Shown here: piece after piece, positions 1 through 21,845 of the stretch
Layout of the letters: every line of letters begins with the position of its first letter
How positions within the stretch are numbered: position 1 is the first letter of the stretch
Source of the DNA: Escherichia coli
Lineage (GTDB): Bacteria > Pseudomonadota > Gammaproteobacteria > Enterobacterales > Enterobacteriaceae
DNA length: 64,000 bases
Assembly: GCF_965641715.1 (NCBI RefSeq)
Contig: NZ_OZ282453.1
Strand: one strand, 5' to 3'
Made by a program: the position numbers and the translations under genes
The notes under the pieces: generated by a model
The model's input: only the letters and a program-made list of their open reading frames with translations
What the model was told of the DNA's origin: nothing
The model's database searches: none

Positions 1-1
1 C

Positions 2-115
2 TTTTGCCGAGAAGATGGCACGACTGACGGCGCAGCTGAAAGATCAGCTGGAAGAGAGCGCGAAGCTGGAAGCACAGATTAAGGCGAATCTGGGGGGGCT
101 GGGTTATGAGTTCTA
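2..115 (+). CDS. hsdM: Type I R-M methyltransferase subunit HsdM, C-terminal fragment (gene starts upstream of window)
   Basis: Open frame from window edge ending ...KLEAQIKANLGGLGYEF*, a typical HsdM C-terminus; stop overlaps the hsdS start (ATGAGTTCTAA). Confidence 0.7.
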
Positions 116-1461
116 AGTTTCGGAAAGTAAAACTATGTGAAATCCTCTCATTTAAGACAGGTAAACTCGACTCGAATGCAGCAGTAGATAATGGTTGTTA
201 TCCTTTTTTTACTTGCTCGCCAGTTACACTTTCGATTAATACGCATGCTTTTGACACTGAAGCAGTATTATTAGCTGGTAATAACGCAAATGGGGTATTT
301 TCAGTAAAATACCACAATGGTAAGTTTAATGCTTACCAAAGAACATATGTTATTACTCCTCTGGATAATTCAGCGGTCAATGTGAAATGGCTTTATTTTA
401 GAATAAAATATGTTACGTCAGAATTACAATCAATGTCAGTTGGCACTGCAACAAAATTCTTAACAAAAAAGATTTTGGATTCATTTGAGATTGAACTGCC
501 AACTTTTGAAGAGCAAACATATCAAGCTCAGATTTTATGGGCGTTACAGGATAAATTAGCTAATAATGAAGCTATAAACCAAACTCTCGAACAAATGGCG
601 CAAGCCCTGTTCAAAAGCTGGTTTGTCGATTTTGAACCGGTAAAAGCCAAAATGGCAGCGTTGGAAGCGGGCGGTTCGCAGGAAGACGCGACACGTGCCG
701 CCATGACGGCAATTTCCGGGAAAGATGCTGATGCGTTGGTGGTTTTTGCGCGTGAACATCCTGAGCAATATGCCGAGTTAAAAGCCACGGCAGAACTGTT
801 TCCGTCTGCGGTGCAGGAAAGTGAGTTGGGGGCGATTCCTAAAGGATGGGGGGTGGCGTCAATTAGTGAGATGGGGAAGATTACTTGTGGCAAAACTCCG
901 TCAAAAAAAGAACCAAAGTATTACGGTGGTGATGTTCCATTCATAAAGATACCAGATATGCATGGGCAACTCTTTGTGCTTAAAACTAATGAATATTTAA
1001 GCGAAGTCGGTTCAAAGTCGCAACTAAAAAAACTTGTGCCCGCTAACTCTATCTGTGTTAGTTGTATAGCTACTATTGGTGTTGTTTCTATCACCAATGA
1101 ACCATCTCATACCAATCAGCAAATAAATTCGGTTACACCTTATAAGAGTTCATTACTTTATTATCTTTATTTTTGTATATTGGGATTGAAAGATCATCTT
1201 CACGTTTTAGGTAGCGCAGGTAGTGCAACCTTAAATGTCAATACGTCTACTTTCTCAGGAATTAAAATCGCTCAGCCTGATGCTAAAGTATTGGAGTTAT
1301 TTCATGCCAAATGTACACAATTATTTAATGAGATTAAATCGCTCTGTGTACAAACTGAATCACTTGCACAACTACGAGACACCCTCCTCCCCAAACTCCT
1401 CTCCGGAGAAATTACGTTACCGGATGCCGAGGAAATAGCCAAGGAAGCTGACTATGTTTAA
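106..1461 (+). CDS. hsdS: Type I R-M specificity subunit HsdS
   Basis: 451 aa; two AT-rich variable target-recognition regions flank a conserved central block (LEQMAQALFKSWFVDFEP) and C-terminal block (LRDTLLPKLLSGEI); start coupled to the hsdM stop. Confidence 0.9.
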   Translation: MSSKFRKVKLCEILSFKTGKLDSNAAVDNGCYPFFTCSPVTLSINTHAFDTEAVLLAGNNANGVFSVKYHNGKFNAYQRTYVITPLDNSAVNVKWLYFRIKYVTSELQSMSVGTATKFLTKKILDSFEIELPTFEEQTYQAQILWALQDKLANNEAINQTLEQMAQALFKSWFVDFEPVKAKMAALEAGGSQEDATRAAMTAISGKDADALVVFAREHPEQYAELKATAELFPSAVQESELGAIPKGWGVASISEMGKITCGKTPSKKEPKYYGGDVPFIKIPDMHGQLFVLKTNEYLSEVGSKSQLKKLVPANSICVSCIATIGVVSITNEPSHTNQQINSVTPYKSSLLYYLYFCILGLKDHLHVLGSAGSATLNVNTSTFSGIKIAQPDAKVLELFHAKCTQLFNEIKSLCVQTESLAQLRDTLLPKLLSGEITLPDAEEIAKEADYV

Positions 1462-2647
1462 AGTCGATCAGCCCAGTAATAGCCTGCAACCGCTTCAGGA
1501 AACCACCTTCACTAACGCGGGTTTCACCGAGCGCTACCACTTACAGGAGTGGCTGGCAAAGCATCCGCAAGCATTGACTCGCAACAGCGATGACGAACTA
1601 CTTATCATCCAGAAAGAGTTTGCCGGGTTTGACGACACCAAAGAGCGGTTAGATCTGCTGGCGATCGACAAAGACGGCAATCTGGTGATCATCGAGAACA
1701 AGCTCGATGATTCCGGGCGTGATGTCGTATGGCAGGCGCTGAAGTACGCGGGCTACTGCGCGAATCTACGCAAAGAACATATTGTTGAGATCTTCCAGCG
1801 TTACCTCGATCAGAACGATCCAGAAGAAACACGCCCAGCCTCTGATGTGCTCGCAGAATTCCTCGAACATGAAAGCCTGGATGAAGTGCAAATTAACCAA
1901 AGCCGTTCCCAGCGTGTGATGATGGTTGCGGCAAATTTCCGCAAGGAAGTTACCAATACTGCGCTCTGGCTGATGCAGTTCAACATCCGTGTCCAATGCT
2001 TTAAGGTCACGCCTTACCGTTATGGAAATGATGTATTCATCGACATCCGCCAGGTTATTCCCACACCGGAAGCCGAATCCTACATGATCGGTATGGCGCA
2101 GAAGGAAGCAGAAGAACAATCAACCAGCGGTGAACTGAAACAGAGCCAACGCCTGCGCAAGGCGTTCTGGACGCAGATGCTGGAGAAATTTCATGCCAGC
2201 GACTGTACGCTGTATAACAACATCAGCCCGTCTATGGATCACTGGTTATGTGCAGGCTCTGGCATAAGTGGTATGCCTTATAGCCTAATATTCAGCAAGA
2301 AGGAAATCCGCGTAGAATTATGGATTTCGCGAGCATCGGCAGACATCAACACCATGGCGTTGAACTGGCTTGAACAACACCGCACATCTGTCGAAGAGGT
2401 ATTCGGCAACCCACTGGAGTGGCTATCGCTACCTGGTAAAAAAGCCTGCCGTATTCAATACCGCCAAAAAATAGATGGCTTCCAGCAGGAAAATTGGCCG
2501 CAAATGATCGACTGGCTGGTGGAACATATGACCCGTTTTGAGAATGCGCTTTCGCCGTATCTGCCACAGCTTAACCAGTTGATCAAGCAGACCTTTAACG
2601 GGCATGATGAAGCTGAAAATACAACAGAAGAAGCCGAACACGTATAA
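1454..2647 (+). CDS. Hypothetical protein embedded between hsdS and hsdR; N-terminal PD-(D/E)XK-like nuclease motif
   Basis: 397 aa; ATG overlaps the hsdS stop by 8 nt with an AAGGAAG RBS; motif ERLDLLAIDKDGNLVIIENK resembles the D...ExK core of Hjc/NucS/RecB-type nucleases; no P-loop. Confidence 0.6.
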   Translation: MFKVDQPSNSLQPLQETTFTNAGFTERYHLQEWLAKHPQALTRNSDDELLIIQKEFAGFDDTKERLDLLAIDKDGNLVIIENKLDDSGRDVVWQALKYAGYCANLRKEHIVEIFQRYLDQNDPEETRPASDVLAEFLEHESLDEVQINQSRSQRVMMVAANFRKEVTNTALWLMQFNIRVQCFKVTPYRYGNDVFIDIRQVIPTPEAESYMIGMAQKEAEEQSTSGELKQSQRLRKAFWTQMLEKFHASDCTLYNNISPSMDHWLCAGSGISGMPYSLIFSKKEIRVELWISRASADINTMALNWLEQHRTSVEEVFGNPLEWLSLPGKKACRIQYRQKIDGFQQENWPQMIDWLVEHMTRFENALSPYLPQLNQLIKQTFNGHDEAENTTEEAEHV

Positions 2648-2662
2648 CACAGGACGTTACCG

Positions 2663-5600
2663 ATGCTTACCGAAGACGACTTAGAACAGCTTTGCCAGGG
2701 CTGGTTTGCCGAACAAGGTTGGGAAATCCATCATGGGCCAGATATTGCCCCCGATGGCTGTAACCCGCAACGCGCCAGCTATCATGATGTATTCCTGACG
2801 CCCGTGTTGAACGCCTGCCTGCAAAAAATCAACCCGCACCTGCCCACTGACGTCTTCGAACAGGTCATCTCCCGTATTACTCGCGCTGAAAGCCCGGATC
2901 TGATTGCCAGTAACAAAGCCTTTCATCACTGGTTGCTGGAAGGGGTTCCGGTACAGTACCGTCGCGACGAAGAACTTATCCACGACCACGCCCTGCTGGT
3001 GGATTTTAGCCAGCCGCAAAACAACCGTTTTATGGTGGTCAATCAAATGACTATCAGCGGAACGAAACAGCCTCGCCGCCCGGATATCATCTGCTTTATT
3101 AACGGAATACCACTGGCGGTTGTGGAACTAAAAAGCCCTGTCGATGACAAGGTAGATATCTGGGATGCGTACCACCAGTTACAGACCTATAAAGATGAAA
3201 TACGCGACCTGTTTATCAGCAATGAAGCGTTGATTGTCAGTGATGGTTATCTGGCGCGTGTGGGGTCCCTGACCGCCACGGAAGAACGTTTTATGCCGTG
3301 GAAGACCATCAGCAATGAAAATGACAAGCCGTTGCTGGAATGGCAACTGGAAACTATGGTACGGGGTTTCTTCAACCGGGAATTGCTGCTCGACTATATC
3401 CGCTATTTCGTTCTGTTTGAAAATAACGATGAAAGGCTAATTAAGAAAATAGCTGGTTATCACCAGTTCCACGCGGTGCGTGAGGCCGTGCAGGCGACGA
3501 TCGTTGCTTCGACCGGTAAGCAACTGGTACTGCACAGTAATATTCAGCCAGGCAGTAAGAAAGCAGGCGTGGTCTGGCATACGCAGGGTTCCGGTAAAAG
3601 CATCTCCATGTGTTGCTATGTCGGCAAACTGTTGCAACAGCCGGAGATGGGCAACCCGACGATTGTTGTTGTGACCGATCGTAACGATCTGGACGGCCAG
3701 CTTTATGGTACATTCTGCCAGGCACAGGAGCTGCTCAAGCAAATGCCGGTACAGGCAGATGATCGTGAAACATTGCGTGATCTGCTTGCAACTCGCGATG
3801 CTGGCGGCATTATCTTTACCACCGTGCAGAAATTCTCCCCGGAAGAAGGGGAAAACGCCCATCCGATTCTCAATGGACGCAGCAATATCGTTGTTATTTC
3901 CGATGAAGCGCACCGCAGCCAGTACGGCATGAAAGCCAACCTGGATCGTAAAACCGGCGTCTATAAATACGGTTACGCTAAACATATGCGCGACGCGCTA
4001 CCTAACGCCTCGTTTCTGGGATTTACCGGTACACCGGTTTCGGCAGAGGATCGCGATACTCGCGCTGTATTTGGCGATTACGTCTCAATTTATGATATTC
4101 AGGACGCTGTGGACGATGGCGCAACGGTGCCTATTCACTATGAATCCCGGCTGGCAAAACTCGATCTCAATCATGAAGAGCTGGCGGCGCTGTCCGATCA
4201 GGTTGAAGAACTGATTGAGGACGATGAGCTGGATCAGAGAGAAAAAACCAAAGGTGAATGGAGCCGTCTGGAGAAACTAGTTGGTGCTAAACCACGTCTT
4301 CAGCAGATCGCTGCCGATCTGATTTCTCACTTTGAGAAGCGCAATACCGTAATGGACGGCAAGGCGATGATTGTCGCCATGAGCCGTGAAATCTGCGTCC
4401 ATCTTTACGATGAAATTATTGCGTTGCGTCCGGAGTGGCACGATGACGATCCTGAAAAAGGGCAAATCAAAATCGTGATGACCGGTACAGCATCTGATAA
4501 GGCAATGCTGCAACCGCATATCTACAACAAACGGACTAAAAAACGGCTGGAATCCCGCTTCAAGAATGTGAACGACCCGCTGAAGCTGGTGATAGTGCGT
4601 GATATGTGGCTGACCGGCTTTGATGCCCCATGCTGTCACACTATGTATATCGACAAACCGATGCGCGGCCATAACCTGATGCAGGCTATTGCCCGTGTCA
4701 ACCGGGTATTCAAAGACAAGCCCGGCGGGCTGGTGGTGGATTATATTGGTATCGCCAATGAGCTGAAACTGGCGCTGAAAACTTATACCGATGCAAACGG
4801 TAAAGGTGATGCGACCGTCAACGCTGAAGAAGCACTGGCAATCATGCTGGAAAAGCTGGACATCATCCACGGTATGTTTGCCAAAACGGCAACGTCAGCG
4901 GGTTTTGATTACACCGGCTTTGAAGCTCATGCGCAGAAGTTGCTAGTACCAGTTGCAAACTATGTGCTCGGCCTTGAAGACGGTAAGAAGCGTTTTCTCG
5001 ATAACGTACTGGCAATTACTAAAGCCTGGTCGCTTTGCTGTACGCTGGATGCGGCGCAGCCTTATAAACTAGAGATTGCTTTCTTGTCGGCGGTAAAAGC
5101 TGCTATCAGCAAATTCACCAGTGTGGACAAAAAAATAAGCCAGGCTGAGAAGAACTCCGCGCTGAAACAGATTCTGGATAATGCCGTAATTGCTAACGGC
5201 GTGGATGATATTTTCACGCTGGCTGGTCTGGATAAACCGAATATTGGCTTGCTTTCAGATGAATTCTTGCAGGAAGTCCGCGATATGCCATATCGAAATC
5301 TGGCGGTAGAGCTGCTGGAAAAACTGATTAATGACGGTATCCAGTCCCGTACAAAAAACAATGTAGTGCAGGAGAGGAAATATTCAGAACGTCTTCAGGC
5401 TGTATTGATTAAATACAACAACCGGGCTATTGAGACGGCGCAGGTGATTGAAGAGCTGATCCAGATGGCGAAGGATTTTCAGTCTGCAATGGCGCGTGAT
5501 GATGCGCTTGGCCTGAATCCTGACGAGATCGCTTTCTACGATGCACTGGCAGAAAACGAAAGCGCCGTCCGGGAGTTAGGAGATGAGGTACTTAAGAAAC

Positions 5601-5797
5601 TGGCGATAGAAGTGACGCTGAAGCTGCGCCAATCCACTACCGTTGACTGGCAGGTACGGGAAAGCGTTCGTGCAAGGCTGCGTATCCTGGTTCGCCAGAC
5701 TCTGCGTCGGTATAAGTATCCGCCAGATAAAACGCCGGGTGCGGTGGAGTTAATTTTGAAACAAGCGGAAGTTATTTCGAATCATTGGACGATGTGA
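2663..5797 (+). CDS. hsdR: Type I R-M restriction subunit HsdR
   Basis: 1044 aa; N-terminal nuclease motif ([18 protein letters not shown]), helicase motif I ([11 protein letters not shown]), DEAH box ([12 protein letters not shown]), motif III (GFTGTP). Confidence 0.92.
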
Positions 5798-5803
5798 ATT
5801 TTA

Positions 5804-5833
5804 GGCTGGCTGTATCAACTGCCAGCCATATTT
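5804..5833 (+). terminator. Hairpin downstream of hsdR (GGCTGGC-N10-GCCAGCC followed by ATATTT)
   Basis: Perfect 7-bp inverted repeat read directly from sequence, 7 nt after the hsdR stop; T-tract is weak. Confidence 0.45.
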
Positions 5834-5861
5834 AAATTATCATCAGTTAAAAGGCACAATT

Positions 5862-7604
5862 GTGAGTAAATATAGCGAAATACAACGTCAATTAGATGAA
5901 GTAAGCCCAATACCGAAAGGTATTCCTAAAGTATACCTTTTAGGGGACACTGGAGCAGGAAAGACGACTTTTATTCGAAAAATATTAGGAACTGAAAATA
6001 CCAAATTCCCTACCACCAGACAAAGTAGAACAACCGTTGCACCAACTGAGTATGTAATATGTAAATCATCCAATTATGAATTAACGATTCTGTTAAAATC
6101 TTTTGATGAGATTAATGGATATGTCAGAGAAATTCTAAAAGAAGCATTAGAGAAATCATTGAAAGGTGAAGATGTTAAAAGAAGCTTACGTCAAACAAAT
6201 GATCAGCGGTTTCGTTTATACTATCTTCTTGACGTCAGTGATATTGCAAATTTTGCTGAAGAAGTTATCTCTCTTACACCTCTTCTTTCCGAAAAAATTG
6301 ACGAATTAAAAGAAATTTTTACCGATGATATAACGGATCAAGATGAGTATATTAGTTTTGCTATTGATGAATTAAATGATAAAGTTGAATGTATCCAAAA
6401 TAAGATTATGGACTCCATTCAGAGTAATGTAATGTCCATTTGTAATGGAAGTATGTTAAGTAATGAATCACAGATATTTAAATACATTTCAACCGAAAAA
6501 GAAGACTTTATCAAAAAATGTAAAAAAATATTATCAAGTGATAAAGAGTCTATATCACCTGTTGTCGAGTATGCGAGACTGAGTGGAGAACTCAAATCAG
6601 AATGGGTGAATAGTTGTGCAGAAATAGTTATTATTGATGGTGAAGGTATTGGGCATAATACAAAAGAAACGGCACAACTAGACTCCAGGCATTATGATTT
6701 CTTTTATGATGTTAACTCAATCTTGCTTATCGAAGAGTCAAAAAAACCTTTTATTGCTGGGGGCAAAAATGCATTAAAAAGTATTTTTCAGCGTGGATAT
6801 GGTGATAAATTAAAACTAATCTTCACTAAGCTGGATGAAGTTATACCTTATGATTCAGACGAATCAACAGATGAAGATAGAATTGATTATGTAAAAGATG
6901 GTCTCAATAATGTTCTGGATGCATTAAAAAAAGAAGAGGTGAAGTGTAACATTGATATCGAGGATATTTATTTCATCGGAGATCTTGATAAACCTGAGCA
7001 TAACGCAAGACTTGAATTGGCTTTTAATTCCATATATGAAAACACAGTTTCCATGATAAATAATGATGAGGTTTTCATTGAGCCTAAGTATGACTTTGAG
7101 TTATTGGCCTTGCATATAAATTCTACTTCTAATGATTTTAAAACATACTATAGAAAATTATTAGATAGAGAACATTGGAAAACAATAGAAGCATTTAATC
7201 GACGGATGTATTCAAATATAGATGGGTTTAGGATGTTTATGCCTATTACCGATTTTGAGGAAACTGTGAGTAAATATATTGGTGGTTTTTTGACCTCGCC
7301 AATGGATTGGAAATATGAAGCGGTTGATAACTTGAAGCAAAAAAGTATTAATAAAATCAAGAGGGAATTCAACAAGCTTATTCTTAGCTTTATTCGCAAT
7401 AAGTTAATTATGGAACCATATGAAAAATGGAAAGAATCCTATTTCTTAGCTGGCACTGGTTCAACGATTAGTAGAAAACGTGAGATAACTACTATTTTTA
7501 GTGACACAATTATTGATGCCTCCCAAACTGAACGCTTTAAGGTGTTCAAGGATCAAATTAAAGAGATTGTTGTCAAGTCAATAGAGAACTGTAAGTCAAT
7601 ATAA
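5862..7604 (+). CDS. AT-rich P-loop NTPase of unknown function (GTPase-like or ABC-like)
   Basis: 580 aa, GTG start with AAAGG RBS; Walker A/G1 GDTGAGKTT (aa 28-36); far downstream VIIDGEG (DxxG or Walker B-like) and FTKLD ([N/T]KxD-like); LSGE ~15 aa before VIIDGEG could be an ABC signature; GC roughly one third by eye. Confidence 0.6.
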   Translation: MSKYSEIQRQLDEVSPIPKGIPKVYLLGDTGAGKTTFIRKILGTENTKFPTTRQSRTTVAPTEYVICKSSNYELTILLKSFDEINGYVREILKEALEKSLKGEDVKRSLRQTNDQRFRLYYLLDVSDIANFAEEVISLTPLLSEKIDELKEIFTDDITDQDEYISFAIDELNDKVECIQNKIMDSIQSNVMSICNGSMLSNESQIFKYISTEKEDFIKKCKKILSSDKESISPVVEYARLSGELKSEWVNSCAEIVIIDGEGIGHNTKETAQLDSRHYDFFYDVNSILLIEESKKPFIAGGKNALKSIFQRGYGDKLKLIFTKLDEVIPYDSDESTDEDRIDYVKDGLNNVLDALKKEEVKCNIDIEDIYFIGDLDKPEHNARLELAFNSIYENTVSMINNDEVFIEPKYDFELLALHINSTSNDFKTYYRKLLDREHWKTIEAFNRRMYSNIDGFRMFMPITDFEETVSKYIGGFLTSPMDWKYEAVDNLKQKSINKIKREFNKLILSFIRNKLIMEPYEKWKESYFLAGTGSTISRKREITTIFSDTIIDASQTERFKVFKDQIKEIVVKSIENCKSI

Positions 7605-7615
7605 TAAGATAGAAC

Positions 7616-7638
7616 AGTCCCGGATAATATTCGGGACT
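7616..7638 (+). other. Hairpin after NTPase gene (AGTCCCG-N9-CGGGACT)
   Basis: Perfect 7-bp stem 12 nt after the stop codon; no U-tract, so may be an RNA-stability or processing element rather than a terminator. Confidence 0.35.
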
Positions 7639-7706
7639 CATACACTTACAGATGGAGCTATGAATTTAGCAGTAAGAGTATTTGTGATTATTTAAGGAAA
7701 GTAACA

Positions 7707-8672
7707 ATGCCTTTAGATTTAAGTAACACTTTAGTTATTGGCATTAGCGCGACTGCGCTTTTTGACATGAGCGAATCCGACCATATGTTTCGGGAAACCT
7801 TTGCGACTGATCCTGATAGCGCCATTGAAAAATACCGCGCTTATATGCTAGAACACGAAAACCAACCTTTACAGCCCGGAACAGGCTACCCCTTAGTCAA
7901 AGCGTTGCTGGGTCTGAACCAGTACCGTCAACCGGATGATAAATCGCCGTTGGTTGAGGTTGTTGTGATGTCACGTAACAGCCCTGATACAGGTATCCGC
8001 GTTCTCAATACCATTCGCCATGACAAACTCGATATTACACGTTCAGCTTTTACCGCAGGCGAAACCGTTGCCGATTACCTTGATGCCTTTGATGTGGATC
8101 TGTTTTTAACGACCAACGTTGAAGATGCGCAAAAGGTGATTGATTCCCGATTCTGCGCCGCTGCAATCCTGAAAGATCCACCTTCTGACGCATCTGATAT
8201 CCCAGAAGGGCAAGTGCGCATTGCTTTTGATGGCGACGCGGTACTTTTTTCCGATCAAAGCGAACTGGTTTATAAGACCCAAGGAATGGCTGCCTTCCAT
8301 GCTCAGGAAGACGCGCAGCAGGATATCCCTATGGAAGAGGGGCCTTATGCCACTTTGCTAAAAAAAATAGCCAAGCTTCAGGAACGATTGCCGACCCGCG
8401 TTGAGTATTCTCCTGTTCGTATTGCGCTGGTGACAGCCCGAAATAGCCCTTCGGAAATGCGCGTTATTAAAACGCTAAGAAGCTGGGGGGTATATGTCGA
8501 TGAAGCTTTTTTTCTTGGCGGTGTAGAGAAAACAAAAGTTCTGAAGGCGTTTAGGCCACACATTTTCTTTGACGATCAGGATGTGCATTTGATCGCGGCT
8601 GCAAAGGTAGTACCTTCTGGTAAAGTACCTTATGCCAGTAACTCCGAACTTGCAGAACGTGAAGCATCGTGA
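7707..8672 (+). CDS. HAD-superfamily phosphatase, cytosolic 5'-nucleotidase-like
   Basis: 321 aa; RBS AAGGAAAG; C-terminal half carries HAD-like motifs I (IAFDGDAVLF), II (IALVTARN), a conserved Lys and IV (HIFFDDQDVH); N-terminal ~170 aa is a separate domain. Assignment is from motifs, not a search. Confidence 0.55.
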   Translation: MPLDLSNTLVIGISATALFDMSESDHMFRETFATDPDSAIEKYRAYMLEHENQPLQPGTGYPLVKALLGLNQYRQPDDKSPLVEVVVMSRNSPDTGIRVLNTIRHDKLDITRSAFTAGETVADYLDAFDVDLFLTTNVEDAQKVIDSRFCAAAILKDPPSDASDIPEGQVRIAFDGDAVLFSDQSELVYKTQGMAAFHAQEDAQQDIPMEEGPYATLLKKIAKLQERLPTRVEYSPVRIALVTARNSPSEMRVIKTLRSWGVYVDEAFFLGGVEKTKVLKAFRPHIFFDDQDVHLIAAAKVVPSGKVPYASNSELAEREAS

Positions 8673-8680
8673 TTATCGCT

Positions 8681-8715
8681 GACAAACCATTTAGTCATTA
8701 AGACTGAATGGTTTG
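8681..8715. other. Hairpin between convergent genes (ACAAACCATT-N15-AATGGTTTGT)
   Basis: Perfect 10-bp inverted repeat in the 77-bp gap between the nucleotidase-like gene and the HNH gene; possible bidirectional terminator. Confidence 0.4.
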
Positions 8716-8749
8716 TATGCCACTCGCAAAATATCTGCCCTACCTCAAA

Positions 8750-9625
8750 TCAATGCTCTCCTCTGAACACCTCTTTTCTGTGCCATTCCACAAACTGCTC
8801 GCCCGGATAATTTTCTTTAACCGGTGGCAACGCAATCGCCTTTCCCGCAAAATCCCAGAACAGTCGCTGTACCACTCCACCACCATTTACCGCGCCGGAA
8901 ACCACCACACGCATATTTTCATCCAAGCCAATCGAACCGCGATCAAACGCTTTATGATGGATTGCGCACAATGCCAGGCCATTAGGTACTTCACAAGGGC
9001 CATGGTGCTGCTTCCATCTGATATGAGCAGCTTCCAGAGCAATTGGCGCATTGTCGTGGCGCATGTTGAAGCCGCAGATCGCACACTGATAATTGTAAGC
9101 ACGTAGCACCATCTGGCGGAACTTCGGATCGCGTTGACGGAGAGAGGTGCGAATATCAAAACCCATCTCGTCAGCTATCTCTTCCTGAATACTGGCCGGG
9201 AAATGCGCCTCCAGGAGCTGCTGCGCCAGCGTATCAATTAACCTGTGATTTTTTGCCACCAACGCAAAATTATCGGCATCAAATCCACCAGCGACATTAT
9301 ATTCAATGAGTTCACGTCGGGGCGGCTGGCGGCTACCACTGGTTGAGCACAGTTGTGCGTTTTGTAGTTCCCAGAAGCCATCGCCCTTCAGACGCCAGAA
9401 CGGCATGTCCGGGCGCTGGTCACGGCGCTGCGGTCCATAACGTTCCAGAAGATCCAACAGGGGCTCGTAGATTTCAGAACCATAGTTAAACAGGCGACCA
9501 TGACCCTGCCGATAGTGTGAGAGGACGTGCAGCAGCAATAATGGCTTATGTGGCGCACGTTGTTCGCCTTTGCGCCAGATGGTGATATTTGATATCGCTT
9601 GCTTTAGGGCTTTGTCAGAGGTCAT
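8750..9625 (-). CDS. HNH endonuclease with N-terminal putative DNA-recognition domain (candidate Type IV restriction enzyme)
   Basis: C-terminal HNH motif YQCAICGF...AAHIRWKQHHGPCEVPNGLALCAIHHKAFDRG (CxxC, H, N, CxxHH); ~190-aa N-terminal domain unidentified. Start set at ATG (MTSDKAL); the track ORF extends to a TTG at 9670. Confidence 0.6.
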   Translation of the reverse strand: MTSDKALKQAISNITIWRKGEQRAPHKPLLLLHVLSHYRQGHGRLFNYGSEIYEPLLDLLERYGPQRRDQRPDMPFWRLKGDGFWELQNAQLCSTSGSRQPPRRELIEYNVAGGFDADNFALVAKNHRLIDTLAQQLLEAHFPASIQEEIADEMGFDIRTSLRQRDPKFRQMVLRAYNYQCAICGFNMRHDNAPIALEAAHIRWKQHHGPCEVPNGLALCAIHHKAFDRGSIGLDENMRVVVSGAVNGGGVVQRLFWDFAGKAIALPPVKENYPGEQFVEWHRKEVFRGEH

Positions 9626-9769
9626 TGCGTTGAAGAATCCATGAGCACATATTTGCGATGATGCTCGCAACTATATGTACATTCAAGGCATTATTGCAGA
9701 CATCCTTTTTGCCTGACTGCTCTGTACCTGGCAGATGAAATTCTGATAACAACGGTAAAAAATACAGCG

Positions 9770-9804
9770 ACCAACCAGTCCTAAGCGGGCTGGTTGGTCT
9801 TTTA
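9770..9804. terminator. Rho-independent-type hairpin downstream of integrase gene
   Basis: GACCAACCAG-N11-CTGGTTGGTC with A-run before and TTTT after on the + strand (bidirectional form). Confidence 0.55.
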
Positions 9805-9840
9805 AATTTAAACATCAGCCGAGGAATAACGGCATTCAAC

Positions 9841-11109
9841 TCACTCGCCATTACCCCGATTGATCTTCGCATAGTCAAACGGCGTAATCGCTCTCTCCCG
9901 ATTGGCATCCAGAAAATCAGCCCACCACTGCAACATCAGCTTGCGCTCATCCAGGTGTTCCGCTTTATGGATATACGCCGCCCTCACCGAGCTGCGTTCC
10001 ATATGGCTCATCTGCCTTTCCACCGCATCCTTCGACCATAACCCTGACTCAATCAATGAGCTACAGGCCATTGTGCGGAAGCCGTGGCCGCAAACTTCAA
10101 CCTTAGTGTCATAACCCATCACCCGTAGCGCACTGTTTACCGTGTTCTCGCTCATGGGCTTACGCGGATCGTGATCGCCAATAAAAATCAGCTCATGTTC
10201 GCCACAGAACTGTTTTATCTGCTTCAGGATCGCCAGCGCCTGCTTTGAAAGCGGCACCAGATGCGGTGTACGCATCTTTGAACCTCGCTGAGAATGTTTC
10301 ACACCGGGAATCGGTTCTCGCTCAGGCGGGATGGTCCACATTGACGTTTCAAAATCGATTTCTGACCAGCGAGCAAAACGTAGCTCACTGGATCGAATAA
10401 AGATAAGCAGAGTGAGTTCTGTCGCCCAGCGGGTTAGCGGCCTGCCTGTATAGCTATCTATTTTCTCAAGTAACTCAGGGATACGCTTTAATTCCAGCGC
10501 CGGGCGATGCTGTCGATTGCCAGAGGCGACTGCTCCAGCCATCTCCTGCGCTGGGTTGTAATCAATCAGCCCACTTTGCACTGCATAACGCATAATGGCC
10601 GTGGTACGCTGTTGGAGACGAGAAGCCACCTCAAGACGTCCAGACAGTTCCACCGCTTTAATGGGTGCCAGTAAGTCACGAGTGCCCAATTCGGCAATAT
10701 TGCGAGAACCAATTGCCGGGAAGATATTGTCCTCCAGGCTCTTTTTTACACGATTAGCATGATCTTCTGACCATTTTTGGTTGGTTACGAGCCACTCTCT
10801 GGCAACCTTCTCGAAAGTAATAATCTCTTTCGCCTGCTCTTCTTTCACAGCACGCTTATGCTCACGAGGATCGATACCAGCAGCTACCAGCTTTCTGGCC
10901 TCTTCCCTTTTCTTCCTGGCATCTGCCAGCGAAACATCCGGGTAAACGCCGAACGCCATCAAATGTTGTTTACCGCCAAAACGGAAACGAAATCGCCAAT
11001 ACTTTGAACCGCCAGGTTTTACAAGTAAGGACATGCCATCGCCGTCAACAAGTGAATACTCTTTCTCCTCAGGTTTCGCAGAGCGAACTTTAGTATCCGT
11101 TAGGGCCAT
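9841..11109 (-). CDS. intB: P4-type tyrosine integrase (IntB-like) adjacent to leuX
   Basis: Begins MALTDTKVRSAKP..., ends ...AITPFDYAKINRGNGE; C-terminal catalytic region with R...HxxR...Y pattern; start trimmed from the track ORF (448 aa) to the conserved MALTD start (422 aa). Confidence 0.85.
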   Translation of the reverse strand: MALTDTKVRSAKPEEKEYSLVDGDGMSLLVKPGGSKYWRFRFRFGGKQHLMAFGVYPDVSLADARKKREEARKLVAAGIDPREHKRAVKEEQAKEIITFEKVAREWLVTNQKWSEDHANRVKKSLEDNIFPAIGSRNIAELGTRDLLAPIKAVELSGRLEVASRLQQRTTAIMRYAVQSGLIDYNPAQEMAGAVASGNRQHRPALELKRIPELLEKIDSYTGRPLTRWATELTLLIFIRSSELRFARWSEIDFETSMWTIPPEREPIPGVKHSQRGSKMRTPHLVPLSKQALAILKQIKQFCGEHELIFIGDHDPRKPMSENTVNSALRVMGYDTKVEVCGHGFRTMACSSLIESGLWSKDAVERQMSHMERSSVRAAYIHKAEHLDERKLMLQWWADFLDANRERAITPFDYAKINRGNGE

Positions 11110-11280
11110 AATGGTCTTCCTTCCATTGGTATCTCGTGAGTATACAAGCAATATCGAATCGGCAAATATACTCATTAGTATACTCACAAGCCTGTTGATG
11201 TGGGTTGGTTCAGGTTGACTTCAGTTGAGGAGAAAAGCTGGAAAAGCCTTGCGTGGCGCGGATTTCAGGCATAAAAAAAG

Positions 11281-11306
11281 ACCTCAGTTGAGGTCTATTT
11301 ACATAC
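11281..11306 (-). terminator. leuX terminator
   Basis: On the minus strand AGACCTCAACTGAGGTCT hairpin followed by TTTTTT, immediately 3' of the tRNA. Confidence 0.7.
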
Positions 11307-11309
11307 TTT

Positions 11310-11394
11310 TGGTGCCGAAGGCCGGACTCGAACCGGCACGTATTTCTACGGTTGATTTTGAATCAACTGCGTCTACCGATTTCGCCACTTCGGC
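11310..11394 (-). tRNA. leuX: tRNA-Leu (anticodon CAA)
   Basis: Reverse complement reads GCCGAAGTGGCGAAATCGGTAGACGCAGTTGATTCAAAATCAACCGTAGAAATACGTGCCGGTTCGAGTCCGGCCTTCGGCACCA: cloverleaf with CAA anticodon and CCA end. Confidence 0.95.
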
Positions 11395-12612: not shown

Positions 12613-13176
12613 TCATTCGCAGCGCTGATCTGAGGCGCTGCCCTCTTTCGCACATATTCTGTTTTGTCGTATCGCCAGCACAGCCTGCCGACATTGTTCG
12701 GTGACATTGGCAATATCATGGTTGATATCAATGCGCACAATATCCTGTTCATCTGCTTGTGGACGCTCCAGCGCCTCAAACTGACTTTTTAGTAACGCTA
12801 CCGGCATAAAATGCCCAGCCCGACGCTGCATTCGCGCGAGGATAGTTTCATAGTCGCCATCTAACCAGAGGAAATGAACATGGGGGCTACCCTTGCGTAA
12901 AATATCACGATACTGTTTTTTTAATGATGAACAGACAATAAATCCTGTTTCATTCTTTTTATAAAGACTGTATGAAGCATCATTTAAGCGTTCCAGCCAG
13001 GGAAGTCGATCTTCATCAGATAATGGAATACCCTGCGACATTTTATCTATATTTTTGGCTGGATGAAGATCGTCACCATCAATAAATTTAGCAGATAATA
13101 ACGCGGCAACCTTGCTACCAATTAATGTTTTACCACTCCCTGAAACGCCCATCAAAATAAAGCTTTCACCCGCCAT
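12613..13176 (-). CDS. idnK: Gluconokinase (thermosensitive, idonate pathway)
   Basis: 187 aa; P-loop GVSGSGKT; convergent with ahr with a 3-nt gap. Confidence 0.9.
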   Translation of the reverse strand: MAGESFILMGVSGSGKTLIGSKVAALLSAKFIDGDDLHPAKNIDKMSQGIPLSDEDRLPWLERLNDASYSLYKKNETGFIVCSSLKKQYRDILRKGSPHVHFLWLDGDYETILARMQRRAGHFMPVALLKSQFEALERPQADEQDIVRIDINHDIANVTEQCRQAVLAIRQNRICAKEGSASDQRCE

Positions 13177-13277
13177 TTAAAATCTCCTGAATCATCTTAC
13201 CTGCTGCGATACTACGCCTGGTGGCATAATAATTTCACGTTTTTTTATTTCTGCTGATAAGAATTACAAGGCACATC

Positions 13278-13293
13278 ACGTTATGCGTAACAT
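13278..13293. promoter_or_regulatory. GntR/IdnR-type operator-like site in idnK-idnD divergent promoter region
   Basis: ACGTTA-TGCG-TAACAT, one mismatch from the ATGTTA-N4-TAACAT consensus as recalled; a second GTAACA half-site lies at 13299-13304. Confidence 0.45.
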
Positions 13294-13392
13294 AGTAATG
13301 TAACAATTTTCTGACGTGATCTTCATCACAAATAATGACAATTAAAACCGCTTAAATGCTTCCGAGGTGTCTACCTGACCAGTGAGGAATTT

Positions 13393-14424
13393 ATGCAAGT
13401 GAAAACACAGTCCTGCGTTGTTGCGGGCAAGAAAACTGTTGCCGTTACCGAGCAGACGATAGATTGGAATAATAATGGAACATTAGTACAAATAACCCGA
13501 GGTGGAATTTGCGGTTCCGATTTACATTATTATCAGGAAGGAAAAGTAGGTAATTTCATGATAAAGGCACCGATGGTGTTAGGTCATGAAGTTATCGGTA
13601 AAGTTATTCATAGCGACTCATCAGAATTACATGAAGGGCAAACGGTAGCCATTAATCCGTCTAAACCGTGCGGTCACTGCAAATACTGCATTGAACATAA
13701 CGAGAATCAGTGTACAGAGATGCGTTTTTTTGGCAGTGCCATGTATTTCCCTCATGTTGATGGTGGCTTTACCCGTTATAAAATGGTCGAAACGTCGCAA
13801 TGTGTCCCTTATCCGGCCAAAGCTGACGAAAAGGTTATGGCTTTTGCCGAACCTTTAGCCGTCGCGATTCATGCCGCACATCAGGCCGGCGAGTTACAGG
13901 GCAAGCGAGTATTTATTTCTGGTGTTGGGCCCATTGGCTGCCTGATTGTCAGTGCTGTGAAAACACTGGGGGCCGCGGAAATTGTCTGTGCCGATGTGAG
14001 TCCCCGTTCCCTTTCGCTGGGCAAAGAGATGGGGGCGGATGTGCTCGTAAACCCACAAAACGACGACATGGATCACTGGAAAGCGGAAAAAGGCTATTTC
14101 GATGTCAGCTTTGAAGTGTCCGGTCATCCTTCATCAGTGAATACCTGTCTGGAGGTCACTCGTGCACGCGGCGTAATGGTGCAGGTAGGTATGGGAGGCG
14201 CGATGGCAGAATTCCCAATGATGGCATTGATTGGTAAGGAGATTTCACTCAAAGGCTCTTTCCGTTTTACCAGCGAATTTAATACCGCAGTGTCATGGCT
14301 GGCGAATGGCGTTATCAATCCACTGCCTTTACTGAGTGCTGAATATCCCTTCACTGACCTGGAAGAGGCGCTACGTTTCGCCGGTGATAAAACCCAGGCA
14401 GCAAAAGTCCAGCTTGTTTTCTAA
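13393..14424 (+). CDS. idnD: L-idonate 5-dehydrogenase
   Basis: 343 aa; Zn-ADH motifs (GICGSDLHYY, GHE). Confidence 0.9.
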   Translation: MQVKTQSCVVAGKKTVAVTEQTIDWNNNGTLVQITRGGICGSDLHYYQEGKVGNFMIKAPMVLGHEVIGKVIHSDSSELHEGQTVAINPSKPCGHCKYCIEHNENQCTEMRFFGSAMYFPHVDGGFTRYKMVETSQCVPYPAKADEKVMAFAEPLAVAIHAAHQAGELQGKRVFISGVGPIGCLIVSAVKTLGAAEIVCADVSPRSLSLGKEMGADVLVNPQNDDMDHWKAEKGYFDVSFEVSGHPSSVNTCLEVTRARGVMVQVGMGGAMAEFPMMALIGKEISLKGSFRFTSEFNTAVSWLANGVINPLPLLSAEYPFTDLEEALRFAGDKTQAAKVQLVF

Positions 14425-14447: not shown

Positions 14448-15212
14448 ATGAACGATCTATTTTCACTGGCAGGAAAAAATATCTTGATTACCGGTTCAGC
14501 ACAGGGCATTGGCTTTTTACTGGCAACCGGCCTGGGTAAATATGGCGCACAAATAATTATTAATGATATTACTGCCGAACGCGCAGAACTTGCTGTAGAA
14601 AAACTCCACCAGGAGGGTATTCAGGCCGTTGCCGCACCTTTTAATGTTACTCATAAACATGAAATTGATGCCGCCGTTGAACATATCGAAAAGGACATCG
14701 GCCCCATTGATGTGCTGGTGAATAACGCCGGTATCCAGCGCCGTCATCCTTTTACTGAGTTCCCTGAACAAGAGTGGAATGATGTGATCGCAGTAAACCA
14801 GACCGCCGTGTTCCTGGTATCGCAAGCGGTAACTCGTCACATGGTTGAACGCAAGGCAGGTAAAGTTATTAATATTTGCTCGATGCAAAGCGAACTGGGA
14901 CGTGACACCATCACCCCTTATGCCGCATCGAAAGGGGCGGTAAAAATGCTCACCCGCGGCATGTGCGTCGAGCTGGCGCGCCACAATATTCAGGTCAACG
15001 GTATTGCGCCGGGCTATTTCAAAACAGAAATGACTAAAGCACTGGTTGAGGACGAAGCCTTCACCGCCTGGTTGTGCAAACGGACCCCCGCCGCACGCTG
15101 GGGAGATCCGCAGGAACTGATTGGTGCTGCGGTGTTCCTTTCTTCAAAAGCCTCTGATTTCGTAAACGGCCACCTGTTGTTTGTTGATGGCGGCATGTTA
15201 GTGGCTGTTTAA
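14448..15212 (+). CDS. idnO: 5-keto-D-gluconate 5-reductase (SDR family)
   Basis: 254 aa; SDR Rossmann motif TGSAQGIG and catalytic YxxxK region. Confidence 0.9.
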   Translation: MNDLFSLAGKNILITGSAQGIGFLLATGLGKYGAQIIINDITAERAELAVEKLHQEGIQAVAAPFNVTHKHEIDAAVEHIEKDIGPIDVLVNNAGIQRRHPFTEFPEQEWNDVIAVNQTAVFLVSQAVTRHMVERKAGKVINICSMQSELGRDTITPYAASKGAVKMLTRGMCVELARHNIQVNGIAPGYFKTEMTKALVEDEAFTAWLCKRTPAARWGDPQELIGAAVFLSSKASDFVNGHLLFVDGGMLVAV

Positions 15213-15274: not shown

Positions 15275-16594
15275 ATGCCATTAATCATTATTGCGGCAGG
15301 CGTCGCGCTGCTTCTTATCCTGATGATCGGCTTTAAAGTTAACGGCTTTATTGCCCTCGTTCTGGTAGCTGCCGTCGTCGGATTTGCCGAAGGGATGGAT
15401 GCACAGGCCGTCCTGCACTCTATACAAAATGGTATCGGCAGCACGCTCGGCGGGCTGGCAATGATCCTCGGTTTCGGGGCCATGTTAGGCAAGCTGATTT
15501 CTGATACGGGTGCGGCACAACGTATCGCCACTACGCTGATTGCTACTTTTGGTAAAAAACGCGTGCAATGGGCGCTAGTGATCACCGGTCTGGTTGTGGG
15601 CCTCGCCATGTTTTTTGAAGTGGGTTTTGTCCTGCTGTTGCCGTTGGTATTTACCATCGTAGCATCATCAGGATTACCCCTGTTGTATGTTGGCGTACCA
15701 ATGGTAGCAGCGCTCTCTGTAACCCACTGTTTTCTGCCGCCACATCCAGGGCCTACTGCCATCGCGACTATCTTTGAGGCTAATCTCGGAACGACTTTAC
15801 TGTATGGATTTATCATTACCATTCCGACAGTTATTGTCGCAGGACCGCTGTTTTCTAAACTGCTAACTCGCTTTGAGAAAGCACCACCGGAAGGCTTATT
15901 TAATCCTCATCTGTTTAGCGAAGAGGAGATGCCCTCCTTCTGGAACAGTATTTTCGCTGCCGTGATCCCGGTCATCCTGATGGCTATCGCCGCCGTTTGT
16001 GAAATTACGTTACCGAAAACTAACACCGTGCGCCTCTTCTTTGAATTTGTCGGTAACCCTGCCGTTGCGCTGTTTATTGCCATTGTTATTGCGATGTTCA
16101 CACTGGGCCGACGTAATGGACGCACCATCGAGCAAATCATGGATATCATTGGGGATTCTATAGGCGCTATCGCGATGATTGTGTTTATTATCGCTGGCGG
16201 CGGCGCGTTTAAGCAGGTATTAGTAGATAGCGGTGTCGGGCACTATATTTCACACTTAATGACCGGAACTACGCTTTCGCCGTTATTGATGTGCTGGACT
16301 GTTGCGGCGCTGTTGCGTATCGCTCTGGGCTCTGCCACCGTCGCGGCCATTACCACCGCGGGTGTGGTGTTGCCGATTATCAACGTTACCCATGCCGATC
16401 CCGCTTTAATGGTACTGGCAACCGGTGCGGGCAGCGTGATCGCGTCACACGTAAACGACCCTGGCTTCTGGCTATTTAAAGGGTATTTTAATCTGACGGT
16501 TGGTGAAACGTTGCGTACCTGGACGGTGATGGAAACCCTTATTTCTATTATGGGTTTGCTGGGCGTGTTAGCCATTAACGCCGTATTGCACTGA
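15275..16594 (+). CDS. idnT: Gluconate/idonate transporter (GntP family)
   Basis: 439 aa, highly hydrophobic polytopic membrane protein. Confidence 0.9.
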   Translation: MPLIIIAAGVALLLILMIGFKVNGFIALVLVAAVVGFAEGMDAQAVLHSIQNGIGSTLGGLAMILGFGAMLGKLISDTGAAQRIATTLIATFGKKRVQWALVITGLVVGLAMFFEVGFVLLLPLVFTIVASSGLPLLYVGVPMVAALSVTHCFLPPHPGPTAIATIFEANLGTTLLYGFIITIPTVIVAGPLFSKLLTRFEKAPPEGLFNPHLFSEEEMPSFWNSIFAAVIPVILMAIAAVCEITLPKTNTVRLFFEFVGNPAVALFIAIVIAMFTLGRRNGRTIEQIMDIIGDSIGAIAMIVFIIAGGGAFKQVLVDSGVGHYISHLMTGTTLSPLLMCWTVAALLRIALGSATVAAITTAGVVLPIINVTHADPALMVLATGAGSVIASHVNDPGFWLFKGYFNLTVGETLRTWTVMETLISIMGLLGVLAINAVLH

Positions 16595-16660: not shown

Positions 16661-17659
16661 ATGCGCAATCACAGAATTTCTTTACAGGATATCGCTACGC
16701 TGGCTGGCGTAACAAAAATGACCGTGAGTCGTTATATCCGCTCGCCGAAAAAGGTGGCAAAGGAAACAGGCGAGCGCATCGCCAAAATTATGGAAGAGAT
16801 CAATTATATCCCTAATCGCGCTCCCGGCATGTTGTTGAATGCACAAAGTTATACCCTCGGTATCTTGATTCCGTCATTTCAAAATCAACTCTTCGCTGAC
16901 ATTCTCGCGGGAATAGAATCCGTCACCTCTGAGCATAATTATCAGACCCTTATTGCTAATTACAATTACGATCGCGATTCCGAAGAAGAGTCGGTGATTA
17001 ACCTGCTCTCTTATAACATTGACGGGATTATACTTTCGGAAAAATATCACACCATCAGGACGGTGAAATTTCTGCGTTCAGCCACCATTCCGGTCGTGGA
17101 ATTGATGGATGTACAGGGAGAACGGCTGGATATGGAGGTCGGTTTTGATAATCGGCAGGCCGCTTTTGACATGGTGTGTACCATGCTGGAGAAGCGAGTC
17201 AGGCACAAAATTCTGTATCTCGGTTCCAAAGATGACACCCGCGATGAACAGCGTTATCAGGGGTATTGCGATGCGATGATGCTGCATAATCTTTCCCCAT
17301 TACGCATGAATCCACGCGCCATCTCATCCATTCATTTAGGAATGCAGTTAATGCGTGATGCCCTTAGCGCAAACCCGGATTTAGACGGTGTATTTTGCAC
17401 CAATGACGATATTGCGATGGGTGCGCTTCTGCTGTGCCGCGAGCGAAACCTCGCCGTGCCAGAACAAATTTCCATTGCGGGTTTTCATGGGCTGGAGATT
17501 GGCAGGCAAATGATCCCAAGCCTCGCCAGCGTAATTACTCCCCGTTTTGATATTGGTCGGATGGCCGCCCAAATGTTGCTGAGCAAAATTAAAAATAACG
17601 ATCACAACCACAACACTGTTGACCTCGGGTATCAGATTTATCACGGCAACACGCTTTAG
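16661..17659 (+). CDS. idnR: LacI-family transcriptional regulator of the idn operon
   Basis: 332 aa starting [17 protein letters not shown] (HTH); start trimmed to the ATG with GGGAGAAG RBS. Confidence 0.88.
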
Positions 17660-21582: not shown

Positions 21583-21845
21583 TTTAAATACGCCCGTAAA
21601 AACTCGTCTTTTGCAGGATTTTAGCTTGTTTCATGGCTTAAACGTCATTTATTCTCTTGAGTCGTCGAAATCGTCGCTAAGATAATTATACTCAACGGAT
21701 TCACCTCTCAGATTTTGTTCTGACGTGCCAATGCCGTAATAACGTTAAGATTAACACGAAGTCATCGCAACAGCGGACATGAGTTACGAAAGCTTGCAAT
21801 TCTATCTGTAGCCACCGCCGTTGTCTTTAAGATTCAGGAGCGTAG

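Follow-up and report, generated by a model that had tools for sequence, protein, structure and literature searches.

The imperfect 16-bp inverted repeat ACGTTA-TGCG-TAACAT at positions 13278–13293 (no strand assigned) of the 64,000-nucleotide stretch of Escherichia coli DNA analyzed here (contig NZ_OZ282453.1 of assembly GCF_965641715.1; hereafter the window) is a real, functional and already known regulatory element: the operator of the idnK–idnDOTR control region, at which the LacI-family proteins IdnR and GntR are predicted to bind. We consider it very probable that the divergent idnK and idnDOTR promoters of the L-idonate (GntII) pathway share this element as their operator, bound by IdnR with GntR as a competitor. 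A preliminary description of this DNA had read the repeat as a GntR/IdnR operator from its resemblance to the consensus, and that reading is supported by a scan with the gnt consensus, by conservation, by the recognition helix of IdnR and by the literature. The significance of the operator itself is small, as it belongs to textbook-level E. coli gluconate/idonate regulation, is present in regulatory databases and has been studied experimentally. What the analysis adds is that the initial reading is upheld, that the half-site spacing is corrected, and that the module is found to be conserved far outside E. coli.

Genes of the idn locus

The operator lies, as had been proposed, between two divergent transcription units, and these were verified using NCBIfam models and RefSeq names, the latter taken from the annotation of near-identical E. 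coli genomes. On the minus strand, idnK (12613–13176; RefSeq name idnK) encodes a gluconokinase that scores 395.8 bits against NF007336 (cut-off 304). The plus strand carries idnD (13393–14424) and idnO (14448–15212), each above the cut-off of an NCBIfam equivalog model and so named in RefSeq, followed by idnT (15275–16594), which matches a gntP subfamily model only and takes its name from RefSeq, and by idnR (16661–17659), which encodes the LacI-family regulator predicted to bind the operator (596 bits against NF047913, TransRegIdnR; cut-off 500). The ORF finder began idnR at a TTG codon (16631). The likely start is the ATG at 16661, 10 codons further in, and is backed by the NF047913 alignment, which runs from residue 11, and by the K-12 annotation (332 aa). 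The locus is flanked by ahr, the tRNA-Leu(CAA) gene leuX and an integrase gene at one end and by yjgR, lptG and lptF at the other, the same arrangement as in K-12 but in reverse orientation. Over the 216-bp idnK–idnD intergenic region the window differs from K-12 at three positions (13222, 13253 and 13341), none of them within the operator, and the RefSeq annotation of K-12 and of near-identical E. coli genomes has no regulatory feature there. The element shares its genes, its intergenic region and its position between divergent promoters with the published K-12 IdnR/GntR site (PMC4052901), from which it shows no difference of substance; it is the same element in a different E. coli strain.

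The operator sequence and its regulators

Positions 13278–13293 read ACGTTATGCGTAACAT, just as first described, and match 11 of the 12 specified bases of the consensus ATGTTA-N4-TAACAT. With this one mismatch, no other place in the 64-kb window matches as well or better (0.15 matches expected at up to one mismatch), so the likeness to the GntR/IdnR consensus that had been pointed out is borne out and is unique at that level. A match of the same quality was obtained in 15 of 100 shuffles, and at two or fewer mismatches the window contains three matches where 2.1 are expected, which is chance level. The 28-bp composite ACGTTA-N4-TAACA-N7-GTAACA has one exact match in the window; when up to three mismatches are allowed there are three matches against 0.10 expected, a number reached by no shuffle. 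Judged by within-window statistics alone, the operator is suggestive and not proven. Both consensus matches with two mismatches occur at chance frequency. One of them, ACGTTAAGATTAACAC, is located at 21742–21757 in the lptF–pepA intergenic region and is not followed by a third half-site (21742–21769); the other is at 6937–6952.

A comparison with the gntT and gntK operators had also been proposed. When the K-12 promoter regions of GntR-regulated genes were scanned with ATGTTA-N4-TAACAT, the same consensus found a pair of sites upstream of each of these genes: ATGTTACCCGTATCAT and ACGTTACCCATAACAA at gntT, and ATGTTACGGGTAACTG and CTGTTATCGGTAACAT, which overlap and are 13 bp apart, at gntK. 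These sites have one or two mismatches to the consensus, and the idn operator, with its one mismatch, is therefore as good a site as they are. The operators differ in other respects. That of the idn genes has an invariant TCAC extension on its 5′ side and the center TGCG, whereas the gntT and gntKU operators have CCGG-like centers; and it is positioned roughly 80 bp upstream of the inferred transcription starts and not over the promoter.

Aligned along its whole length, IdnR shares 46% identity with K-12 GntR, and the recognition helix (GVTKMTVSR) and hinge (YIPNRAP) are identical in the two proteins, so a common DNA specificity is to be expected. Both IdnR and E. coli GntR match LacI-family models (RbsR, CcpA, CytR, LacI, PurR). 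A regulator of the GntR winged-helix superfamily (FadR/HutC-type) was therefore rejected as a candidate, and the term GntR-type refers to the E. coli gene name and not to that superfamily. Published work agrees with shared specificity: gntR and idnR have been described as paralogues with common binding sites (Price et al. 2008, PMC2395238), and Ravcheev et al. (2014, PMC4052901), who cite Tsunedomi et al. 2003b, state that IdnR-binding sites precede idnK and idnDOTR and that GntR recognizes them. An IdnR regulog has been reconstructed for the Enterobacteriales, with 5-dehydro-D-gluconate and L-idonate as effectors (Ravcheev et al. 2014, PMC4052901; RegPrecise), and the IdnR sites in RegulonDB show very strong occupancy in vivo (Freddolino et al. 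2021, PMC8282354). A literature search for the operator sequence itself returned an unrelated match only.

Conservation of the operator across genera

A single scan of species-representative genomes for IdnD yielded 45 loci. A divergent idnK adjoins idnD across a spacer of 214–218 bp in 22 of them, and together with the window these gave 23 distinct intergenic sequences, which represent the genera Escherichia, Citrobacter, Phytobacter, Kosakonia, Enterobacter, Trabulsiella and Mangrovibacter. In their alignment, the longest invariant run is the 16-base TCACGTTATGCGTAAC (13276–13291, no strand assigned), which covers most of the palindrome and includes a 5′ TC extension, and the second longest is TGTAACA (13299–13305, no strand assigned), a third half-site in the orientation of the right arm of the main operator. 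Next in length come GTGA (13316–13319) and TCACAA (13326–13331), corresponding to the arms of a CRP-like site. Invariant bases make up 24 of the 30 positions in 13276–13305, against 28% over the whole intergenic region. Operator identity to the window ranges from 0.90 to 1.00 across the 23 regions; for Mangrovibacter it is 0.90–0.93, compared with 0.40–0.42 outside the operator and CRP site. An Rfam scan of 13100–13450 gave only a chance-level snoRNA match (E = 0.8), so no RNA element accounts for this conservation.

The palindrome is found upstream of the first gene of the idn operon in 43 of the 45 loci, with ACGTTA and TAAC invariant, and the full module of palindrome, half-site and CRP-like site was recovered with a regular expression in 41 of them. 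The palindrome is missing from one locus that has no upstream sequence (L015) and from one that has diverged (L041). The other two loci outside the 41 are L042, in which TTAACA replaces GTAACA, and L036 from Prodigiosinella confusarubida, in which palindrome and half-site occur twice and the CRP arm is degenerate. The two units of the latter, ACGTTATTTGTAACAT...GTAACA and ACGTTATGCGTAACAT...GTAACA, follow one another in tandem at a distance of 45 bp ahead of idnD (2834–2915 of that locus). The module also precedes idnD in the absence of an idnK neighbor, namely in other members of Enterobacter and Trabulsiella and in Pantoea, Winslowiella and Tatumella. In Serratia the operon order is idnO–idnD, and the module, TCACGTTAAAGGTAACAG-N6-GTAACA-N8-AGTGA-N6-TCACG, is found upstream of idnO. 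An idnR homologue accompanies the operator in the other genera as well, and in Serratia this regulator, whose gene is divergently oriented, is just 45–49% identical to IdnR.

Third half-site and 5′ extension

The third half-site, GTAACA at 13300–13305, is separated from the palindrome by a 6-bp gap (AGTAAT, 13294–13299) and lies in register, at a 13-bp offset, with the GTAACA at 13287–13292. The preliminary description was correct in noting a second GTAACA but placed it 10 bp downstream, a spacing that agrees with neither the gap nor the register. Among the 45 loci, GTAACA follows the palindrome at 6–7 bp in 42 and TTAACA does so in one more, and across the Enterobacterales the register of this lone half-site to the palindrome stays at 13–14 bp even in rearranged operons. 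A full second palindrome centered 13 bp downstream was not found, the left arm there reading CATAGT as compared with ATGTTA; within the 16 bp so centered, the distal arm (TAACAA) is good and the proximal arm is poor. Its conservation across genera shows TGTAACA to be a constrained part of the element.

Most likely this half-site allows either a second regulator dimer, overlapping the first, or a more extended contact, by analogy with the overlapping sites at gntK. The offset of those sites, which belong to the GntI system, equals the 13-bp register of the extra idn half-site, but both gntK sites are full palindromes while the second idn site has a distal arm only. LacI-family sites that overlap at about 13 bp are common, are preferred among GntR orthologues and are functional at gntKU, and they are hard to reconcile with known structures (PMC4052901). 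Going by its sequence, the idn element would be another conserved case of such an overlap. If a second dimer does read the third half-site by one arm only, or if a non-canonical oligomer reads it, this would represent a new binding geometry for the LacI family.

Two more skeptical views of these sequences can be weighed against the conservation data. The palindrome could be a functionless chance match in an AT-rich intergenic region, as the consensus statistics of the window would allow, given the three matches at up to two mismatches and the 15 shuffles that still yielded one at a single mismatch. This view is refuted by conservation across genera and can be given practically no weight, since the palindrome coincides with the longest invariant run in seven genera, between flanks that retain only about 40% identity, and since 43 of 45 loci, rearranged ones among them, have it ahead of the idn operon. 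More can be said for the idea that function is confined to the 16-bp palindrome and that the second GTAACA is repeated there by accident. A LacI-family dimer normally requires two arms, and the 16-bp site centered 13 bp downstream has a poor left one. Even so, we regard this as unlikely: TGTAACA is invariant in the 23 sequences whereas the 5–6 bases preceding it vary, and the 6–7 bp gap is preserved in the 42 loci, Serratia and Erwiniaceae among them. It is also at odds with a sentence from Tsunedomi 2003b, known here as quoted in PMC11363960, which counts three sites, and with the functional overlapping 13-bp GntR sites at gntKU (PMC4052901). The quoted sentence refers to "binding of GntR to all 3 sites" at gntV (= idnK), a wording that, as far as the quotation goes, fits three half-sites or elements. 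The conservation across genera of the module, with its three half-sites and CRP site, supports treating the third half-site as functional.

On the opposite side of the palindrome, TCAC at 13276–13279 overlaps the 5′ end of the repeat (TCACGTTA) and is invariant in every taxon examined. It is kept in Serratia, Pantoea, Winslowiella and Tatumella and is absent from the K-12 gntT and gntK operators. This asymmetric extension may serve as a contact specific to IdnR. A search for a CRP partner of this TCAC, which lies 5′ of the operator, found none.

CRP-like site and promoter geometry

Downstream of the third half-site is a CRP-like site, cGTGA-N6-TCACA (13315–13330, no strand assigned), that has 9 of the 10 consensus bases and is centered at 13322.5, 37 bp from the operator center. 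Taken alone, this match to TGTGA-N6-TCACA is no rarer in the window than expected by chance. The CRP-like site is nevertheless present in 41 of the 45 loci at a fixed distance from the operator, the centers being 37 bp apart here and 36 bp apart in Serratia.

Candidate −10 elements were assigned to both promoters. For idnD this is TTAAAT on the plus strand (13352–13357), within a conserved CGyTTwAAT block and implying a start near 13364, and for idnK it is TAGTAT on the minus strand (13209–13214), which is part of a conserved GATAyTA block as read on the plus strand and implies a start near 13202. The implied starts appear to agree with those reportedly mapped by Bausch and colleagues at −29 (idnD) and −26 (idnK) from the start codons. 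An A-tract upstream of the idnK −35 position (13240–13246, minus strand) is a candidate UP element, a reading that is said to go back to the same authors; it appears on the plus strand as a partly conserved T-run, with TTT invariant at 13242–13244 in the 23 sequences. Both candidate promoters are missing a good −35 element, and a simple sigma-70 promoter scan of 13150–13420 found nothing, which together fit a dependence on activators.

With the implied starts as reference points, the CRP-like site would be centered at −41.5 of idnD. The operator center would fall at −78.5 relative to idnD and near −83.5 relative to idnK, midway between the two promoters and outside both. The arrangement at idnD resembles CRP class II promoters with an upstream co-regulator in that the CRP-like site is about 41.5 bp upstream of the inferred start, with the idn regulator site further upstream at a fixed spacing of 36–37 bp. 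It differs from them in that the upstream partner is a LacI-family protein, from a family that mostly represses, and the assignment to class II itself depends on the inferred start.

A model for control of the divergent promoters

In the mechanism that we favor, a dimer of IdnR, whose gene closes the idnDOTR operon, would bind the imperfect palindrome ACGTTA-TGCG-TAACAT, and the paralogue GntR, having the same recognition helix, could occupy the same DNA. With L-idonate or 5-ketogluconate bound, IdnR would activate both divergent promoters from its upstream position, and at idnD it would act jointly with CRP bound at about −41.5. GntR would lower expression mainly by competing for the operator. 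The extra GTAACA on the side toward idnD belongs to the same module. Of this scheme, the present analysis shows the sequence and its rarity, the gene context, the conservation across genera of the three half-sites and the CRP-like site, and the similarity of the two regulators. That both proteins bind, and in which direction they regulate, is taken from the literature, and we infer the promoter distances and the mode of action. Activation by IdnR is suggested by the distances, because an operator some 78 and 83 bp upstream of the inferred starts would be too far away to block RNA polymerase directly. A stricter version, in which palindrome, half-site and CRP site are one unit because IdnR and CRP form an obligatory activation complex with two LacI-family dimers overlapping on the DNA, is conceivable but speculative, and we think it rather unlikely.

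The main alternative to activation by IdnR is that the site is a classical repressor operator, used by GntR only or by an IdnR that purely represses, from which access of RNA polymerase is blocked. LacI-family proteins are mostly repressors, and the sites from which GntR represses gntT and gntKU share this consensus (PMC4052901). Such an operator would be expected nearer the start sites than this one, which is outside the core promoters by the distances just given, and at every locus bearing the operator it co-occurs with idnR and not with gntR. Furthermore, the K-12 RefSeq annotation designates IdnR a "dual regulator", and the title of Tsunedomi 2003a, as cited in PMC4052901, calls GntH (= IdnR) "the activator of GntII genes". 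We therefore judge purely repressive action to be very unlikely. Still less probable is a further auxiliary operator within idnD that loops with the main site, as the downstream site at gntT might. The composite search at up to three mismatches, with its three matches against 0.10 expected, did place one match with three mismatches on the minus strand at 13577–13604, about 200 bp past the start of idnD, and at gntT, too, the first site is followed by another about 140 bp further downstream. However, the match falls on the codons of a conserved dehydrogenase motif, PMVLGHEVIGK, and synonymous positions there vary freely among orthologues, which destroys it. Conservation at this place is thus that of the protein; the GHEVIG codons are not conserved at synonymous sites, and 13577–13604 was rejected as an operator and is best seen as a by-product of coding.

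Distribution of the idn locus and an adjacent island

Of 5426 complete E. coli genomes, 2053 carry the idn locus, in each case on the chromosome; with this distribution it is accessory and not core. Elsewhere in the window, within positions 1–11394, a genomic island adjoins the tRNA-Leu(CAA) gene leuX (11310–11394, minus strand). No complete E. coli genome covers at least 80% of this island, the best reaching 65% at 96% identity. Its integrase gene is intact (448 aa; 9841–11187, minus strand), and its long open reading frames lie at 106–1461, 1454–2647, 2663–5797, 5862–7604, 7707–8672 and 8750–9670. The RefSeq names found under partial matches to the island include type I restriction subunits R and S, a DUF4268 protein and a phosphorothioated-DNA-binding restriction endonuclease.
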